From: Promethearchaeia archaeon
GTDB lineage: Archaea; Asgardarchaeota; Lokiarchaeia; Sigyniarchaeales; SOKP01
Assembly: GCA_046497275.1 (NCBI GenBank)
Contig: JAWOFX010000084.1
Span: 32,941-64,940 of the forward strand
DNA: 32,000 bases
Reading direction: 5' to 3'
In this document: positions 2,816 to 10,763 of the stretch, piece after piece
Layout of the letters: each line of letters starts with the position of its first letter
How positions within the stretch are numbered: position 1 is the stretch's first letter
Program-made: the position numbers and the translations under genes
The notes under the pieces: model-generated
The model's input: the letters and a program-made list of their open reading frames with translations, nothing else
The model's database searches: none
Told to the model about the DNA's origin: nothing

Positions 2816-3724
2816 CTAAATACTTGCAAAAACAAAAGATAAGAGTCCTAAAAAAGCTCCAACCTTGAGAAATAAACTAATTTTTCCAAAACTCTTTTTT
2901 GAAAGATCACTCACCACAGAAAGAATGAATGCTATAATGACAACCGCAAGACCAAAAAACATCGAAAAAAGGTAAGCCCAAAAGTTAATGATATTAGTAA
3001 ATATAGGTAAGATAAAGAAACCTATTGCTAGTAAATCAAAAGCCATTGAGAAATATAATGCATTCTGAACTCCAAGAATTATAGCTAATGTCTTGACCCC
3101 TCCTTCTCTTTTATCTCCTTCAATATCCTCACAACCTTTCACAACTTCTCTAGCAAATAATAAAAAGAATGCTGTTAAAAAGAAGAAATAAATGTAAAGA
3201 GGGATATTATAACCGTTTAAGATTGCTCCATATAATAATCCGATTGAAAATGAAATACTCACAATAATATTACCAAATATTCCACTCTTTTTTCCATAAG
3301 CTGCATAGAGCCATCCTATAAATCCAAAAAAAACGGCAACAATAATATTAACATAACCTAAGTTCAATAATAAACTATGGATAATAGCCAATAATATACC
3401 AATTGTTAATATGATAATGTAGTAATATTTTGCTTCTTTTAAGGAAATTTCTCCCATGGGGATCGGTCTTTCAGGGCGATTAATTCTAGACACTAACAGA
3501 ATCTATCTGTTAATTTTATCTATTTCGACATCATAAATGTCGTTAACTATCATCCCTGACCCAGCAATTAATATATAAGTCGCCACTCCTATTATGAAAT
3601 TTAAGATAAGATCTAATAGAGGGACGCCGGTTCTTGTATTCAGAACACCTATGATAACTGTTAAAGCTCCCATCAAACAATTGATCGGGCGTATTATTTC
3701 AATATAAGCTTTCTTTAATGTCAT
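2816..3724 (-). CDS. Digeranylgeranylglyceryl-phosphate (DGGGP) synthase, UbiA prenyltransferase family; predicted join(3724..3516, 3485..2816), 292 aa after intron removal
   Basis: Track ORFs 3503..3736 and 2816..3493 are the same reading frame, separated by an in-frame TAG (3505-3503). Motifs: IIRPINC, NDIYDVEID[K]INRPERPIP and REVVKGCEDIEGD...KTLA, which are the two acidic motifs of archaeal DGGGP synthases. ATG at 3724 is the preferred start; TTG at 3736 is the alternative. Confidence 0.9.
3486..3515 (-). other. Putative 30-nt archaeal bulge-helix-bulge (BHB) intron within the DGGGP synthase mRNA
   Basis: mRNA reads CGAAAU-AGAU-AAA-AUUAACAGA-UAGAU-UCUGUUAGU-GUCU-AGA-AUU(AA)UCG. This gives a 4-bp central helix AGAU/GUCU, two 3-nt bulges (AAA, AGA) and a 9-bp inner stem with a 5-nt loop containing the UAG. 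Cuts after the second nt of each bulge excise 30 nt and give GAU AA|A AUU AAU CGC CCU = D-K-I-N-R-P. Confidence 0.8.
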
Positions 3725-3811
3725 GTGTTTTAGCAAAATTGATTTTTTTATTAATTATTAATAAAAAAGTAATTACTAAATACTTTACGAAATATATTTG
3801 ACAAAATTAGA

Positions 3812-6800
3812 TTAAAAGTTATCTAATTTAATAAAGGTAGAAGAATTTTTTACAATTCTAGCTCTTTTTACCGATTTGATATATCTATTGGAGGGAATTT
3901 TGATACCTTTTTGAATCGCCAATCTTCTCCAGCTAACCTTCCAACTTTCGGGGACAAGACCATTCTTAATTTTTTGAATGTTTTCAGTTAGAATATTAGA
4001 AAAAAATTTCAAGAGATCTTTATCATAGCGATCTGCTGCGTTTATAAATCCATGATTATCTCTAAAAAGATAGACTAAATTATTGGGATCTAAATTATAT
4101 TTCTCAAAATCAATATGATGCAAAATAATATCTCCATTGTTAAAATCCTGAAGATTGAATACTTCCCCTGTCAACATATCAACGAATTTCCACTGTTTAT
4201 GATTTGTGAGATATCTAAATAAACTCTTGAGTGTCTTGAATTCTTTAGAAACATTAAAAATTATTAGTTTTTCCTTATTTAATAGAGTGAATATCTGAGA
4301 TTCCGCATTGAAAATGCGTAATTTCCTATTCTTGAATTGTGCGGGATACCCATGGCATTGAACATCATAACCAAGATCTTCATAAGATGGATCTAAATCC
4401 TTTATTAAATGATTCATCGAAACCTCTAACCTATCTTTAAACCAACGAGCTCTAACTTTATTTAATATCGTTAATTTATCTATATCTAATCCGATTATAT
4501 CTTTTTCTTTTCTAAGATTTTTGATAGTCGGAAAATAACGCCCTTTTCTAATTTCAGATAATTTAGAATCGAGGTAATCTTCTAATCGCCGAGTATCACT
4601 CATAATTCCATTATTATAAAGATATTCAGTAAGATTAGGAGCAATGTTGTTTTTATCTAACCAACGAGATATGTATATTGATAGCCATTGAAAATCAGTA
4701 AATTCATCTGTAATATTCATTATATTTTCGGGTGTAGGAAGAAAAGTATAATTTGTAATTTGTTCCTTTAATGGATTTAATAAATCACGTAACTTTTTTT
4801 TATAAGTTGCCAAACCAGCCTTTTCTTGAAGTTCTGTTATTAGAGGCAAGTTATTTTGATTTAACCAAGAATTTACTAATGAAGGTAAAGTATCAAAATT
4901 CAAATCTGGTCGCTCTTGAATAATATTTTCAACAGTAGGAATGAAATTATAGGATTTTATTTCAATCAACTTCTCATCTAAAAATTCATAAACCGGGACA
5001 CTCTTTATTAGTCCAGCGTCTTTTTTCAAATCTGTCAAATACTCATATGAAATTTTTCCGTCTGAAAACCTAGCCTTAAACCAAACTGCAATTTGGTCAG
5101 AAGTTACATCCTCATAACCTGTATCTTTAATTACGCGATCCAATGTGGGTATATATCTCAAATTATTAATATCATCTAATTTAGAATCTAAAAATTGATT
5201 TAGCTTATGTTGCAAAGGTACATAAAATCGATTACTAAAATCTAAATTTAGTTTTTTCTCTAAATATTCAAGAAAACGATAAATGACAGGCTCAGAAAGT
5301 CCGACTTTTTCAATTAAATCTTTTTTATAAAGCTCATCACCCTCTTTATTAAATAAATAATATATAAACTTATAACATTTAATTACCAAATCTTTACGAG
5401 CTTCATTATATTTATATTTAAAAGTATCTGTAATAATCCCTTTAATTAAACTATCATTGCTTTTAAAACGCGAAATAGATTTAATCCCTTTACAGAATAG
5501 TTTATAACAAATTTCCATAATAGAATCTAAATCATCAGCTAAAAAAGTACTAGAAATAGAAAATTTATCATCTAAGTTAAGTCCGCATGACTCTAAAACG
5601 TTAGTTATCCTTCTTAAAACCTTTCGAGAAAGACTGAATTTTTTAGCAAGATGTTTTTTGGGTAATAATCTATCATGGAAAAGTAAATGAGAAATTACTT
5701 GAAAGTATTTCTTGATGACGCCAATACGCGATTCTGTGAATAAATAACCAAATTCCTTAATTATATTAGATAAAATACTTTCTTTGTTGGATTCTATGTC
5801 TTTAAGAGTATATTTACCACTTTCTAAAATCTTGTAGCATTTCTTTATGATTTCTATAGAATCTTCAACTGCGAAAAGTACATATACACGCGAAAAACCC
5901 TTCTCAATATACTTGCCTTCAACCTTAGAATTTGATTCTTTATCCATATTTTCCATGATATTGGATAATTGTTTAGATGGTGGAATAATAAGATCTTTTT
6001 CTTGTCTAATTTTCTCAAATAAAGGATAAAAAGGTAACCCATAATTTCTCATTAGGATTTTATTTATCGCATCCAAACCTAACATGATATCAGTTTTAAA
6101 AGTCTCTTTCATATTGTTTTTAAGCAAGAAATTATCAGTATAGGTCTGATCATATACGCAAAACTCCACATCCGAAATGAAATCACCTTGCTCTGAAATA
6201 TTCAATACACCCGAAATGGTGATCTTTTTTCTTTTCTTCTCGGGAAAAAATTGATCAGCGAACTTACGGGGCATAATCGATATAAAGGAACCAGAATCAA
6301 GAAAAGCGGTAAGGGATTGACCTTTAATTGTGATTTTAAATGGTTTATCAGTTCTAAGAGATTTTCCTATAGGAGAGGCATAAAAACATTTAATAGCTGT
6401 GTTAATATTAGGTCTAGAATATATCCAAAGGGAAGGTTGTGTGAGGAATCTACTCTTTTTTCTATTATCTATAGTAAAATAATTCCGCAATTGTCTCTCA
6501 GGCATGAAAATATCTCCACAGGATAACAAAGATTTTTTCATATCTTTTATTGAGTGTTTGGTATTATGAGAAGTTAAAAGGAAACATCTCAACGCTCCAA
6601 AATTTGAATCTTTTGGCTTGAATAGATTCCCATTTTGAAAAAGTAAATAGATAAAAACCTCGACTTGAGTGAGATTGAGATTAAATAGAGATGCAATATC
6701 TTCAAATAATAATTTTTTTTGTTCATTCACATAATAATTGCGTACGAAATGCATATAGTCCTTCCATTTATTCAAGTAATAAAATCCAAACATTTCACTA

Positions 6801-9067
6801 TATCCCACGTATTTAGGGATTAACTCCTGCAAATATTCCTCAAATTGAGTATAAGAGAGATTTTCAGATATTTTACGAAAGCGTGTATCAATTTTTAAGA
6901 ACGCCTTAAATTCCGTATATGCTGATTTTATATCCGCTTTTGAGAAAACATAATGGGAAATGAAGAATGTTTTTAGTAGTTCTTTTAGGATAGAAGGGTG
7001 TTCGATATAATTTGGAATTATTTGGGTTGTATTTTTCCTTTTATTTTGTATTTTAATAGGAAATCTCTCTTTTGTTTTCTCATAGATTGCTAAAAATTCT
7101 ATAAGATTTTGAAGTTCTTCTTTAGCATCTTGATTCGTATTAAATATCTTTTGTAAATGATTGATTAAACTGCTAGATTGTTTCCGCAGATAATTTCCCA
7201 TAAGCAATTTAAAAGTACCAATAATCCAATACAAATTTCTGCTGTTCATAATTCTGGTTTGATTGGTCATATATTTCACTTGTTCGAAATAAGAGAGCAT
7301 TTTATCAAGATATTCGCTTTTATCTGATACCAGAATTTTTACTTTATTAAGATTATTAAGTTCTTGATGAAGATTTACTCCATCACTCATCAATTGCTCA
7401 TTTAATTTAATTTGCATAATATAATGGGAAAGGTGAGTTTTTAAGTTAATCTTATTTGCTAAGCTCCAAAATGATTTAAAAATCTCTATGGATTTTTGCT
7501 CGATTTCTGGGTAAATCTCAAATAGTGTGCGAGGAATAGATGGAGTATTAAAATTATAATCTAATGAGAATAATTCCTTCCACCTTGGATAATCAGATTC
7601 AGAATCATATTCGTGCGATTTTATCCCAAACCGTTTCGTATAAGAAGATGTTCCTATTATCTTTATCTTGCTGCTGAGATTCCCATTCACATCTAAAAGA
7701 AAAGGATATTCTTCCATCCTCTGCTTGAATATTATTTTTTTTAGTCCCTTTGACAAGATAAGAGAATCTGCGTTTAAATAATGCGCTAAACTAAGATGAT
7801 ATTGTATGTAAAATTTCCAATAATCTTCCTCAGAGAGGCTTAAAGGATCATAAATGGCTAATTTTTTAGGCGTGCATTCCTCATAATAAATCCTTGAAAA
7901 CGCAAGTGTCTTAATAATATTACTAATGGAAGCAATATGCAATAGAAACTCTTTGATAAAATCTGTAAACCCTTTTTCGCTTAAGAACGTGATAATGCTT
8001 GGGGCACATGTATAATTGACAGATCTTTCCTTAACTGAAGCATATAATTCTGGAGGTAATGTATTTTCGTGTTCTTTATAATACTTTAAAAGTGTTAGAA
8101 TAAAGTCTGCGCCTAATACAATCACTTTATTTTTTTCTTTTTCAAGGGTATTTAGATGAATCAATATCTTATCTATATTTTTAAAATCGTGATAATAAAT
8201 ATAGGAATCATCCGAGTTGATCTTAGCAAGATCAAGTACTCTGGTGGGAAACTCTGTTAACAGACTTTTATAAATCTTTTTCATCTTAGGTTTTTTCTTG
8301 CCAAACTTGGATAAATCAAGGTATTTAATTAATTGCTTTGGAGAGATTTTACCAATATAAAGAGATTCCGCTATTTTTTCTAAGGACACAGGAATGATCG
8401 AATCTACATTATTTGATTCACTTTCTGATGTATATATATAAAACTCATACGTATCCGAATCATAGGCCATATCATTCAATCGTATCGGAACAAATTCATC
8501 AAATATTTCTTGAAATGTTTTTATCTTTAAGTCTGGAAATGAATTTCTGTCATTTTTAGTATCATTTTCATTTAGCCCTCTTGTAAGCGAACTCTTCCGT
8601 AACTTACGATAATTTGTTTTAGTAACCTTTTTATACTGTTTTGAAGTAATATACATACCACAATCATGTGAGATTGATAAGATTAAGTGGGAGAGAATAC
8701 AATTTGTCAAGGATGAATCATACAATTTAGAGTGATATAAATTAAGAGAATTAATTTGAAAAGAAAATTGTAAATCCTCACTCTCTTTCCTGATACTCAC
8801 TTCTAAATTTTTTAAACGTGAAAGAAGAGGCATTTGATCTTTTTTATTTGTATTTTGAGCTTGAAGGAGACGTGAGATATAAGAAAATATTGGAGTTGAA
8901 AAAATTAAGGTGACATCATACTTTTTGATAAGATAAGTGATACTTTTAGGAAGAGAATTCTCAATTAAATAAAATTTGATGAGTTTAGTTGTAATATGGG
9001 GTCCTAAGAATATTTTACTATTTCTTAGTGTTGGCTTATTAAAGTTTTGACCTATTTGAGAATACAT
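3812..9067 (-). CDS. 1751-aa multidomain protein: winged-helix segments, retropepsin-like aspartic protease domain, internal repeats, C-terminal HNH-like motif
   Basis: Single uninterrupted ORF. Protease motif: FKITIKGQSLTAFLDSGSFISIMPRKFA...DIMLGLDAI (clan AA D-S-G plus xLG, ~6060-6345). HNH-like motif: ILHHIDFEKYNLDPNNLVYLFRDNH (~4040-4135). HTH-like segments also present. Overall function unknown. Confidence 0.65.
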   Translation of the reverse strand: MYSQIGQNFNKPTLRNSKIFLGPHITTKLIKFYLIENSLPKSITYLIKKYDVTLIFSTPIFSYISRLLQAQNTNKKDQMPLLSRLKNLEVSIRKESEDLQFSFQINSLNLYHSKLYDSSLTNCILSHLILSISHDCGMYITSKQYKKVTKTNYRKLRKSSLTRGLNENDTKNDRNSFPDLKIKTFQEIFDEFVPIRLNDMAYDSDTYEFYIYTSESESNNVDSIIPVSLEKIAESLYIGKISPKQLIKYLDLSKFGKKKPKMKKIYKSLLTEFPTRVLDLAKINSDDSYIYYHDFKNIDKILIHLNTLEKEKNKVIVLGADFILTLLKYYKEHENTLPPELYASVKERSVNYTCAPSIITFLSEKGFTDFIKEFLLHIASISNIIKTLAFSRIYYEECTPKKLAIYDPLSLSEEDYWKFYIQYHLSLAHYLNADSLILSKGLKKIIFKQRMEEYPFLLDVNGNLSSKIKIIGTSSYTKRFGIKSHEYDSESDYPRWKELFSLDYNFNTPSIPRTLFEIYPEIEQKSIEIFKSFWSLANKINLKTHLSHYIMQIKLNEQLMSDGVNLHQELNNLNKVKILVSDKSEYLDKMLSYFEQVKYMTNQTRIMNSRNLYWIIGTFKLLMGNYLRKQSSSLINHLQKIFNTNQDAKEELQNLIEFLAIYEKTKERFPIKIQNKRKNTTQIIPNYIEHPSILKELLKTFFISHYVFSKADIKSAYTEFKAFLKIDTRFRKISENLSYTQFEEYLQELIPKYVGYSEMFGFYYLNKWKDYMHFVRNYYVNEQKKLLFEDIASLFNLNLTQVEVFIYLLFQNGNLFKPKDSNFGALRCFLLTSHNTKHSIKDMKKSLLSCGDIFMPERQLRNYFTIDNRKKSRFLTQPSLWIYSRPNINTAIKCFYASPIGKSLRTDKPFKITIKGQSLTAFLDSGSFISIMPRKFADQFFPEKKRKKITISGVLNISEQGDFISDVEFCVYDQTYTDNFLLKNNMKETFKTDIMLGLDAINKILMRNYGLPFYPLFEKIRQEKDLIIPPSKQLSNIMENMDKESNSKVEGKYIEKGFSRVYVLFAVEDSIEIIKKCYKILESGKYTLKDIESNKESILSNIIKEFGYLFTESRIGVIKKYFQVISHLLFHDRLLPKKHLAKKFSLSRKVLRRITNVLESCGLNLDDKFSISSTFLADDLDSIMEICYKLFCKGIKSISRFKSNDSLIKGIITDTFKYKYNEARKDLVIKCYKFIYYLFNKEGDELYKKDLIEKVGLSEPVIYRFLEYLEKKLNLDFSNRFYVPLQHKLNQFLDSKLDDINNLRYIPTLDRVIKDTGYEDVTSDQIAVWFKARFSDGKISYEYLTDLKKDAGLIKSVPVYEFLDEKLIEIKSYNFIPTVENIIQERPDLNFDTLPSLVNSWLNQNNLPLITELQEKAGLATYKKKLRDLLNPLKEQITNYTFLPTPENIMNITDEFTDFQWLSIYISRWLDKNNIAPNLTEYLYNNGIMSDTRRLEDYLDSKLSEIRKGRYFPTIKNLRKEKDIIGLDIDKLTILNKVRARWFKDRLEVSMNHLIKDLDPSYEDLGYDVQCHGYPAQFKNRKLRIFNAESQIFTLLNKEKLIIFNVSKEFKTLKSLFRYLTNHKQWKFVDMLTGEVFNLQDFNNGDIILHHIDFEKYNLDPNNLVYLFRDNHGFINAADRYDKDLLKFFSNILTENIQKIKNGLVPESWKVSWRRLAIQKGIKIPSNRYIKSVKRARIVKNSSTFIKLDNF
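4400..5200 (-). repeat. Four degenerate ~66-70-aa tandem repeats inside the 1751-aa ORF
   Basis: Aligned cores: FLDSKLDDINNLRYIPTLDRVI / FLDEKLIEIKSYNFIPTVENII / LLNPLKEQITNYTFLPTPENIM / YLDSKLSEIRKGRYFPTIKNLR. Each is followed by a conserved Trp (VWF, SWL, RWL, RWF). Spacing is about 200-210 nt. Confidence 0.75.
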
Positions 9068-9160
9068 TTCTAATTCCTTTTTATGTTTTTAACTATCCAA
9101 AAAATCCAGATCTTTATAAATAAAAAAAATCGCGAAGGGTGCAAAAATATTTTTTATAAT

Positions 9161-9830
9161 ATGAGGCAAGATACATAATAAGTAAGGAACGTCAATTAAA
9201 GGAAATTGGATTGATGGCGGTGGGATTAGGCATATTAAGTTTTATGGTGATCTCGCTTACGGCTCTTTTAATCTCTGTGGGTATAGTTAAAATTCATAAG
9301 TTTTCTCTCGGAAATAATAAAGGGATATCAATAAAAAGTGTAATCGCAATGGATGATACCCTTGGAAAAGATTATGCCCGTTGGTTTATCATTGGGATTC
9401 TCATACAAATTATTATAAGTTATGTGTATGGGAGTTATTTAGGATTTCAATTCAGTATTGGGAATGAATGGTCTTTAAATCTACTCTTTTTGACATTAAA
9501 TGCCGGAATTGCTGAGGAATTATACTTCTCGCTCTTTTTAGGAAGTATACTATTAAGTTTTGGAATAAATAAAGTTCGGGTCCTTTTATCGGGTATTGCG
9601 ATTACGATTAGTTTCGGACTTCTCCGTAATGCGGTCTATGACACTGATCAGAAAAGCGCTTCTGTTTATGATAATATTGAGGATTCTCTATTTTCTTATA
9701 TAATACACAACAAGAAGGGTCTCAGTTCCGATGATGCTACACTCTCTTAATAATTTCCTATTTTTACAAACTATGTTTTTTATATGAAGAAGCAAAAATT
9801 TTTAGATGCAAATTATTGCAAAGGTAGAAG
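9161..9830 (+). pseudogene. Degraded CPBP/Abi (CAAX protease-like) intramembrane metalloprotease
   Basis: GIAEELYF (EExxF motif) lies in track ORF 9211..9750. The expected FGLLH reads FGLLR. After a frameshift near 9650 another frame gives ALLFMIILRILYFLI*YTTRRVSVPMMLHSLNN, which has an in-frame stop followed by the HxxxN motif. The upstream ATG at 9161 is also out of frame. Confidence 0.65.
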
Positions 9831-9947
9831 CAACTATAGAAATTTGTTCTGAGTGTTTGGAAAAAAATATATTACGAACCGAGAAAACCTTCCTTGTTTA
9901 AATTAGATTTTTTTCCTTTAATTAGTTATTTTTAAATAATAAACTAT

Positions 9948-10763
9948 TTATATTGGACAATAATTCTTGTTCTGTTCTTTTCCAGCATCTTTTATCTCGT
10001 CGATTATTGGCTTAAGAGACGCTCCATTATCCTTCAAAATATTTTTTTCTATAAATGTCCCCATTACAACTATATCGGCGCCTGCTTCTACAAATGCTCT
10101 CGCATCCTCTTTATTTTCTATTCCCCCGCCAGTAATAAGTGGTATACATAAAACACGAGATGTAAGTGAAATATGTTCTAAAGGTATTCGATTTCCACCG
10201 GAACCGGCTTCCAGATATACTAATTTGAACCCAAACATTTCTGCGGCTAAAGCATAGGCTGCGCTAATTTTTGGTTTATTTCTAGGAATTAATTTTGCAT
10301 CCCCTATCCATCCAGCACTAGCACCAGGTTCCACAATTAAATATGCCATAGAAATATATTCCAAACCAGACATTTTCACTGTATAACATGCCATTGCCTG
10401 TTGTCCGATAATAAAATAAGGATTCTTCGAATTTAGCAATGACATAAATAATATTGCGTCTGCATTCGCAGAGACACATGAAACACCTCCAGGGAAAATG
10501 ATTAAGGGGATGTCCACTTTTTCCCTAATTGTACAAATAGTTTTATCAACAAAACCTTGATCAAATGCAGTACTTCCACCAATTAAGATAGCATCTGTGC
10601 CCGATTCTTCCGCCAAATATGCCATTTTCGCAGCTTTTTTCGGACTCTGGTTTATCGGATCAGGGTCTATCAGAGAAAAATGCAGGGCACCCTCTTTATT
10701 AATTTTTTCTATTAAATAGTTATAAGTTGAAGTCTCTTTTCCATTTAGTACAGAATTAACCAT
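9948..10763 (-). CDS. Geranylgeranylglyceryl-phosphate (GGGP) synthase
   Basis: LHFSLIDPD, DAILIGGS, IIFPG, FMSLLNS.NPYFIIG, YLEAGSG and GGGI motifs of the archaeal GGGP synthase TIM barrel. ATG 10763 is preferred over the track start 10814, which overlaps the upstream gene. Confidence 0.93.
   Translation of the reverse strand: MVNSVLNGKETSTYNYLIEKINKEGALHFSLIDPDPINQSPKKAAKMAYLAEESGTDAILIGGSTAFDQGFVDKTICTIREKVDIPLIIFPGGVSCVSANADAILFMSLLNSKNPYFIIGQQAMACYTVKMSGLEYISMAYLIVEPGASAGWIGDAKLIPRNKPKISAAYALAAEMFGFKLVYLEAGSGGNRIPLEHISLTSRVLCIPLITGGGIENKEDARAFVEAGADIVVMGTFIEKNILKDNGASLKPIIDEIKDAGKEQNKNYCPI

Follow-up and report, generated by a model that had tools for sequence, protein, structure and literature searches.

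We analysed a 32,000-nucleotide (nt) window from a Promethearchaeia archaeon (Asgardarchaeota; Lokiarchaeia; Sigyniarchaeales; SOKP01; GenBank assembly GCA_046497275.1, contig JAWOFX010000084.1, positions 32,941 to 64,940). The minus strand of its positions 3812-9067 holds an open reading frame (ORF) of 1751 codons without an internal stop. Its product, P0001, places an intact-motif retropepsin-like aspartic protease domain upstream of an HNH-like nuclease, an architecture that a first-pass annotation of this DNA had inferred and that proved real. The ORF lies in DNA of ~30% G+C, and its neighbours encode PcrB (geranylgeranylglyceryl phosphate (GGGP) synthase), a geranylgeranyl reductase, a UbiA-type digeranylgeranylglyceryl phosphate (DGGGP) synthase, HMG-CoA reductase and a leucine-rich repeat (LRR) protein. 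The features discussed below are listed in window coordinates, with P0001 residues and the basis of each assignment in brackets; HTH stands for helix-turn-helix, AF2 for AlphaFold2, pLDDT for its predicted local distance difference test and dN/dS for the ratio of non-synonymous to synonymous substitution rates.

3812..9067, minus strand: whole ORF of P0001, 1751 aa, stop codon included (open reading, selection, independent DNA contigs)
8468..9031, minus strand: PIN-like domain 1 (residues 13-200; AF2 pLDDT 75-87, VIA structure comparison, alignment A2)
7628..8131, minus strand: second alpha/beta domain, PIN-like by motif (residues 313-480; AF2 pLDDT 75-86, alignment A2)
7058..7570, minus strand: helical region (residues 500-670; AF2, low model confidence)
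6767..7018, minus strand: winged-helix domain (residues 684-767; VIA Z 7-7.9 to cullin WHB and MutY-type winged helices)
6563..6706, minus strand: HTH-like segment containing the FEDIASLF stretch (residues 788-835; pattern only, conserved in alignment A2, low pLDDT)
5996..6391, minus strand: retropepsin-like aspartic protease domain (residues 893-1024; motifs, fold match, sub-threshold Pfam RVP)
6290-6298, minus strand: catalytic motif D924-S925-G926
6071-6088, minus strand: psi-psi-Gly motif, I-M-L-G at residues 994-997 (G997 invariant in 11 sequences)
5882..5995, minus strand: weakly conserved linker, mosaic junction and candidate cleavage region (residues 1025-1062; dN/dS, end of homology)
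5216..5881, minus strand: HTH-rich region of the C-terminal module (residues 1063-1284; weak Pfam HTH_11, Mga and HTH_24 matches, weak VIA HTH/winged-helix matches with Z up to 5.5)
4403..5215, minus strand: four helical repeats of ~68 aa (residues 1285-1555; in-register similarity)
3968..4300, minus strand: HNH_3-like nuclease domain (residues 1590-1700; motif, sub-threshold Pfam HNH_3, hhalign)
3713..9945, no strand: ~6.2-kb block that same-genus genomes lack between PcrB and UbiA (comparison with genomes G002 and G005)
3482..3511, minus strand: 30-nt in-frame, stop-containing hairpin insertion in the UbiA catalytic motif (comparison with relatives)

The features of P0001 are not due to chance. 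The same fusion is intact in a second genome as P0002 (67% identity), and comparison of the two gave dN/dS values of 0.25 for the ~900-aa N-module that precedes the protease, 0.12 for the protease, 0.25 for the C-terminus and 0.6 for the linker at residues 1025-1062. Purifying selection was seen across all parts of P0001 (dN/dS 0.12-0.38). Freshwater-sediment DNA contigs from an independent study covered the whole stretch and bridged the junction of protease and C-terminus with at most one difference. An accidental read-through fusion or assembly chimera, a decaying selfish-gene remnant with no function of its own, would suit the tiny size of the family, the in-frame TAA in one long-form relative and the deletion forms found in a related sediment population (run X4, 90-95% identity). 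The latter join 6847 to 9588 and 3897 to 9404, removing residues 1-740 with the upstream region or nearly the whole gene, and their ends do not coincide with the borders of the 6.2-kb block. Because purifying selection acts in two genomes, and with the junction bridged by independent contigs, we consider such an accident very improbable.

Retropepsins are best known from retroviruses and retrotransposons. The D-S-G and downstream IMLG motifs that the first-pass annotation had picked out are both present in P0001, as LDSGSF at residues 923-928 (nt 6284-6301) and IMLGLD at residues 994-999 (nt 6071-6088). Pfam RVP matched residues 911-1004 (E=0.0026) with 18.5 bits, which does not pass the cut-off of 20.7; the relative P0012 does, with 22.6 bits. 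An exhaustive HMMER scan with residues 1-1030 over 1.84 billion representatives returned 12 proteins only, and two scans of genome contigs with protease alignments found only the G017 locus. Outside the close group identity falls to 26-31%, and the D-S/T-G and psi-psi-Gly motifs are nevertheless kept in 10/10 relatives that cover them. The AF2 model covering the domain, built on 15 sequences, reached a pLDDT of ~85 in the protease. Its best Foldseek matches in the PDB were the SFV (foamy-virus) protease and the HIV protease (template-modelling scores of 0.75 and 0.69), and VIA-align matched it to retroviral proteases, Ddi1, Rickettsia APRc and RloA2 with Z 9.5-10.4 and a root-mean-square deviation of 2.6-3.6 over 89-105 residues. 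The lowest dN/dS of P0001 also lies here (0.12-0.26). Judged by motifs and model, residues 893-1024 are a retropepsin-type aspartic protease domain with an intact catalytic motif, and protease activity is predicted.

A two-copy structure prediction placed the protease domains as a homodimer in which residues 924-926 of both copies touch (ipSAE 0.57 versus 0.00 for the best control; at least 42% of contacts common to runs; partner pLDDT 71). The mark used for such predictions was reached by 20/30 proteins solved as one-chain pairs and by 1/23 solved as single chains. Since retropepsin dimers have already been solved, this prediction is a likeness and not a proof, and may reflect memory of those structures. 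Dimerisation would also serve a fusion that works uncleaved, in which the retropepsin-like domain mainly dimerises or regulates two nuclease units or DNA-binding arrays. Double-strand cleavage by HNH or LAGLIDADG enzymes commonly requires two active sites, and in two short forms of the family, P0006 and P0014, the protease stands right before the nuclease with little else. A pure scaffold, however, would not be expected to keep the catalytic triad, and D-S/T-G is invariant at 26-31% identity in the domain with the lowest dN/dS, while the linker behind the protease is the least constrained part of the protein (dN/dS 0.6 versus 0.12-0.25 on its flanks). The uncleaved fusion is a live rival that we judge unlikely.

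What follows the protease differs among relatives. P0001 and P0002 carry the HNH-like nuclease, whereas P0004, P0009 and a gene on a Joint Genome Institute (JGI) metagenome contig (L055) combine N-module, protease and TnpB. The short form P0014 joins the protease to a TnpB-like part of ~1200 aa without an N-module, and P0006, from family genome G017, joins it to a LAGLIDADG endonuclease. RuvC and TNB domains are present in P0004, P0009, P0013 and P0014, and no matches to these TnpB domains (OrfB_IS605 / Cas12f-like TNB) were found in P0001. P0003 has a third type of C-terminus, with an HH-I-D ... D-P-N-x-L ... H motif at residues 1529-1559 (L007); it is unrelated to the HNH module of P0001 by BLAST, and its Atlas features lean towards HNH with scores <0.9. 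The nuclease behind the protease is thus exchangeable between TnpB, LAGLIDADG and HNH types. The N-module and the TnpB of P0009 are each ~25-29% identical to the P0004 type, and this similar divergence fits an old, co-diverging fusion. Two further candidates were rejected. P0013, taken at first as a short form, proved to be the 3' portion of a long form that a single TAA interrupts, and P0008, taken as a nuclease-less carrier, runs off its contig end. In L055 (position 3068) the long form was called as two ORFs separated by one in-frame TAA, which sits in a low-confidence linker ahead of the winged helix and could mark a pseudogene, an error or read-through.

The exchange has left a mosaic among the four close homologues P0001-P0004, which have three different C-termini. 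Their N-modules fall into clade A (P0001 and P0003, 77% identical) and clade B (P0002 and P0004, 79% identical), with 55-59% identity between clades, whereas the protease segment is 76-83% identical in all pairs. The HNH-type C-terminus common to P0001 and P0002 is 79% identical, and the synonymous distance (dS) between their genes falls from 1.2 in the N-module through 0.70 in the protease to 0.40 in the C-terminus. Homology of P0001 to P0003 and P0004 stops at the linker, residues 1025-1062. Because the combinations of clade A with HNH, clade B with HNH, clade A with the other C-terminus and clade B with TnpB all differ, recombination must have occurred on both sides of the protease segment. 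The best-supported view is that P0001 did not arise as a single invention but by recombination, which fused a carrier-protease unit to an endonuclease gene that already existed and was linked to UbiA. Nature here offers a clear example of how domain cassettes are exchanged at a conserved hinge.

A large TnpB element is also present in this genome in at least nine copies, all with one sharp right end, the sequence ending AAAAATGCA. They lie on other contigs as follows.

C108:7866-10529; C25:16241-18872; C30, C128, C118, C92, C71, C134 and C133 (L004, L005): TnpB element copies in this genome (G000)

Two of them (C108:7866 and C25) start at protease codon 956 and have a ~110-aa linker in common with the P0004 fusion. 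In the remaining copies the conserved 5' region, of >420 nt, is a different one. The long protease-TnpB forms represent the natural context of oversized TnpBs in this lineage.

A variable C-terminus behind a conserved, pre-toxin-like segment, together with stand-alone cassettes (the C108 and C25 copies) that hold the 3' half of that segment, recalls polymorphic toxins, in which a peptidase segment likewise precedes a variable nuclease and recombination exchanges cassettes of partial homology (Zhang et al. 2012, PMC3482391). P0001 might by that comparison be an archaeal toxin that is secreted, freed by a releasing peptidase and supplied with new nucleases from orphan cassettes, releasing peptidases being a defining part of such systems. 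Unlike them, P0001 lacks a signal peptide and any membrane segment (19-residue hydropathy of at most 1.42), is followed directly by UbiA with no downstream immunity gene, and carries no toxin-type domains; TnpB and LAGLIDADG are not toxin domains either, and aspartyl peptidases are not among the releasing peptidases described (PMC3482391). The polymorphic toxin explanation fails on secretion and immunity, and we regard it as barely credible.

Downstream of the linker, the HTH-rich region of the C-terminal module leads into the four repeats, which start near residues 1285, 1355, 1422 and 1491 and are similar in register (z=8.4 versus random windows of the same protein), bearing out the repeat arrays noted at first reading. 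Repeats 1 and 4 gave weak winged-helix matches with VIA, and all four are possibly winged-helix-like DNA-binding units. The C-terminal His/Asn motif noted in the same reading was located at residues 1649-1676 (nt 4040-4123) as HH..N..NL..H. Its spacing is conserved in 11 family members (HH...N...N-L...H, residues 1650-1672), and H1650, H1651, N1663 and H1672 are invariant or near-invariant in 11 relatives. Pfam HNH_3 (PF13392) matched sub-threshold at the same motif in 8 family members, and PHROG HNH families matched the domain with E 0.02-0.9. When the 11-sequence family profile was compared by hhalign with 15 Lokiarchaeal HNH_3 domains, the match reached a probability of 86.8% (P=4.3e-6), and the HH, N, NL and H positions lined up. 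Once the free-standing and distant family sequences are added, the HNH assignment, made from profiles and motifs, is solid at the family level. Absence of a retropepsin fold, or homologues without the Asp or the His/Asn residues, had been named in advance as grounds for rejecting the architecture; neither occurred.

The C-terminal module also exists as a gene of its own. A search with residues 1025-1751 found the free-standing proteins P0020 (689 aa), P0021 (670 aa) and P0022 (601 aa) on three other Lokiarchaeal contigs, at 66-46% identity. P0020, from a Candidatus Lokiarchaeota metagenome-assembled genome, is 66% identical, and its alignment begins at about residues 1052-1063 of P0001, just past the linker; 5' of P0020 lies AT-rich non-coding DNA with no protease remnant. 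The start of the free-standing form is thus at the place where release by cleavage would be expected. In all five close family members (P0001, P0002, P0020, P0021 and P0022) UbiA follows directly downstream on the same strand. Distant relatives of the HNH family (33-47% identity) occur at other loci in 8/134 family genomes; several are broken by stops or reduced to remnants, with degenerate remnants in four genomes.

Presence at the locus is sporadic. In G002 and G005 the gap between PcrB and UbiA is ~230 bp, homology to our window stopping at ~9945-9960 and resuming at ~3712, and in G006 the spacer holds an unrelated 400-aa gene (L019:8949-10151), which marks it as a variable spot. The block is absent here in three genomes of the same genus, and the carrier was matched in 0/6 same-genus genomes and 1/36 family genomes. 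Neither the upstream region 9068-9947 nor the downstream spacer recurs elsewhere in the genome, and an Rfam search gave sub-threshold snoRNA-like matches only.

The UbiA gene itself (~2816-3760, minus strand, ~50-110 nt downstream of P0001) carries the 30-nt insertion, which splits the motif Asn-Asp..Asp...Asp-x-Ile / Asn-Arg-Pro-Glu-Arg-Pro. The insertion has one 3-nt bulge, a 9-bp helix and a 5-nt loop, and is flanked by a 9-nt imperfect direct repeat; its predicted folding led us to reject a canonical bulge-helix-bulge intron. L008, L059 and L060 carry this insertion too, differing by one compensatory base-pair change, and L072, G002, G005 and G006 lack it. It thus occurs in 4/5 HNH-bearing UbiA loci and in none of the loci without the HNH gene; a pattern search found it in 0/134 other family genomes. 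Deleting the 30 nt restores the UbiA consensus motif, and matching Ile codons 30 nt apart would also permit translational bypass.

In collaborative homing, described in phages, a free-standing endonuclease gene lies beside a gene with an intervening sequence. The locus here likewise combines a fixed position, sporadic presence, a short insertion in a highly conserved motif of an adjacent essential gene, confined to loci with the endonuclease gene, and degenerate copies elsewhere, and free-standing HNH homing endonucleases of the HNH_3 / I-HmuI type share with P0001 an HH..N..NL..H motif after a long HTH-like array. The pairing of insertion and HNH gene is, by analogy, the arrangement expected of a homing-type endonuclease gene beside its presumed protected target. 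The differences are that this is a cellular archaeal chromosome, that the intervening sequence is 30 nt long and of no recognised intron type, and that a protease-bearing carrier of ~1000 aa precedes the endonuclease in one fused protein, its cleavage and target being predicted.

A defence or conflict system would explain the coupling of protease and nuclease in another way. The fused nuclease would be kept inactive, the N-module, with its PIN-like and winged-helix domains, would sense foreign nucleic acid and gather molecules, and the dimerised protease would free a toxic nuclease that stops infection. The need of a retropepsin to dimerise would be a natural switch; the carrier is patchily distributed; modular effector swapping at a conserved hinge is typical of conflict systems; and the P0014 locus has a gene for an OLD-like ATPase/TOPRIM protein within ~4 kb, the P0009 locus an MmeI-type restriction-modification gene. 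Protease-activated pro-nucleases recur in bacterial defence and follow the same logic of a protease coupled to a nuclease, with repeated acquisition and exchangeable partners (PMC12799240). Those described there are trypsin-like or caspase proteases with metallo-beta-lactamase-fold nucleases, each partner having a gene of its own within a known defence system (Tuck et al. 2025, PMC12799240), whereas the retropepsin here is fused in one chain to HNH, TnpB or LAGLIDADG and has no known defence context. PADLOC models gave no family for P0001, P0003 or P0006 at E<=0.01, and the window holds lipid-synthesis genes around P0001 and no defence island. TnpB, LAGLIDADG and HNH_3 nucleases with long DNA-binding arrays are moreover sequence-specific nucleases of selfish elements and not indiscriminate effectors, and the HNH module keeps to one locus and goes together with the UbiA insertion. 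We hold the defence pro-nuclease to be a live rival and a doubtful one.

Our preferred explanation, held tentatively and at somewhat less than even chance, is a carrier-protease fused to a homing-type HNH endonuclease that the protease releases by cutting the weakly conserved linker. Unit 1 (residues 1-1024) is a rare Lokiarchaeal carrier of PIN-like domains, helical region, winged helix and retropepsin, one that stands ahead of a TnpB nuclease in other genomes. Unit 2 (residues ~1063-1751) would be a multi-HTH, four-repeat HNH_3-type endonuclease with site-linked, sporadic, homing-type behaviour. The protease domains of two molecules would dimerise through their D-S-G loops, and the dimer would cut the linker at residues 1025-1062, freeing a ~690-aa endonuclease equal to the free-standing form. 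With its HTH and repeat units the freed enzyme would recognise an extended DNA site, which it would then cut, the most likely target being a UbiA allele without the insertion. Of all this, the data establish the architecture, the retropepsin fold, the conserved motifs, the mosaic, the free-standing homologues, the linkage to UbiA and the purifying selection. A broader claim, which we consider rather unlikely as it stands, is that the family forms an undescribed Asgard class of single-chain protease-nuclease proteins in which a retropepsin dimerises, cuts its polyprotein and releases or activates an exchangeable endonuclease, here one that polices the 30-nt sequence in UbiA. The first-pass annotation had proposed a self-processing polyprotein such as a protease-released nuclease of defence, toxin or selfish-element biology, and that interpretation as a whole is partly supported.

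Several observations weigh against release of a homing-type endonuclease. Proteolysis, the cleavage site, nuclease activity and the target are inferred, and the role of the ~900-aa N-module is left unexplained. Single-sequence HNH_3 scores all lie below the cut-off of 24.8 bits (best 19.9 for a relative in G015, 15.2 for P0002, no match for P0001), and an HMM built from Lokiarchaeal HNH_3 domains scored P0001 at E=1.8, 11th of 10,119 ORFs, which is not significant. The AF2 model did not resolve the HNH beta-beta-alpha-metal fold (pLDDT of ~25 there); for residues 1025-1751 the model came from a 2-sequence alignment and was unusable (mean pLDDT 44). A word-based search with residues 1575-1751 found a fragment of the same protein only, and when P0001 and the HNH-region profile were searched against the sequences of solved structures, nothing meaningful came up. 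At the locus, convincing terminal direct or inverted repeats flanking the 6.2-kb block were not found, the HNH-bearing locus L072 lacks the UbiA insertion, and the distant HNH-family members do not adjoin UbiA. On the supporting side, salt-lake metatranscriptome contigs match the window at 100%, both ends of the gene included (3708-3927, 4343-4585, 4739-4889, 5146-5342 and 8736-8980). They are compatible with transcription of P0001 and no proof of it, RNA-library contigs may contain DNA, and the insertion at 3482-3511 lies outside the matches.

Compared with known retropepsins (family A2 and relatives, including retroviral proteases, the Ddi1 RVP domain, Rickettsia APRc and Pseudomonas RloA2), P0001 has the same fold (Z 9-10.4), shares the D-S/T-G and psi-psi-Gly motifs and is predicted to form a two-fold dimer whose catalytic loops touch, and as in retroelement polyproteins its protease is embedded between other functional units. 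It differs in its Asgard archaeal host, in a sequence below the Pfam cut-off and in its surroundings, with PIN-like and winged-helix parts upstream, HNH, TnpB or LAGLIDADG nucleases of the family downstream, and no Gag, reverse transcriptase or integrase. The other point of contact is with TnpB of the IS200-IS605 OMEGA systems (RuvC-II-rearranged archaeal clades). Most carrier-protease family members end in a large TnpB, in place of which P0001 has its HNH module. An account of TnpB makes no mention of a protease or peptidase association (Altae-Tran et al. 2023, PMC10691335). In the open-access texts that we searched, fusions of a retropepsin to TnpB, HNH or LAGLIDADG were not described. A conserved and apparently active retropepsin that precedes, in giant Asgard proteins, selfish-element nucleases from three unrelated families would mean that prokaryotic mobile or conflict genes use polyprotein processing in a new way; if true, prokaryotes would have their own counterpart to the processing of retroelement polyproteins. 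Because the HNH module is linked to a stop-containing insertion in DGGGP synthase, an essential gene, the chromosome of a cellular archaeon may contain a homing-type system that can be tested.

In the N-module, the first-pass annotation had seen two segments loosely resembling PIN folds without catalytic Asp residues. For residues 13-200 the resemblance found support. VIA gave Z 8.9 to 1y82 and 7-8.2 to VapC toxins, a level that the tool calls common, and the first catalytic Asp is replaced (G22-P23-H24), an Asp at this position occurring in P0009 only (alignment A2). Residues 313-480 instead keep acidic positions; by eye in alignment A2, D321, E362 and D415 are conserved in the family and the fourth acidic position is Gly in P0001. 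This domain was not matched among the VIA top 50, and its PIN-like fold is an assignment by eye. The complete set of four conserved acidic PIN active-site residues is found in neither domain of P0001, again by eye in alignment A2. The segment beginning FEDIASLF, which the same annotation had called PCI/winged-helix-like, was located at residues 788-815 (nt 6623-6706). An Atlas feature search with residues 1-900 gave no usable match, and an Atlas fold search with the N-terminal model returned aspartyl-protease clusters only.

Some smaller observations concern neighbouring and related genes. Within the block, a divergent 179-aa hydrophobic ORF (9211-9750, plus strand) has a Glu-Glu motif faintly like that of CPBP/Rce1 intramembrane proteases; a true Rce1-like gene lies directly upstream of the P0014 protease-TnpB gene (L057:5230-5982), at a locus unrelated to this one. 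This genome also has a 652-aa ORF with two HNH_3 motifs of the HH-I-N-F-D type (G000:C28:19970-20803; L021, L022), and the class has recurrent ORFs of ~1250 aa that contain a single HNH_3 domain. Pieces of the N-module likewise recur in other large Asgard proteins. P0011 (1966 aa) combines the piece corresponding to N-module residues 343-630 with a TFIIB zinc ribbon, cyclin repeats and LRRs, and P0016 (749 aa) combines that of residues 661-841, winged helix included, with an NYN RNase domain.

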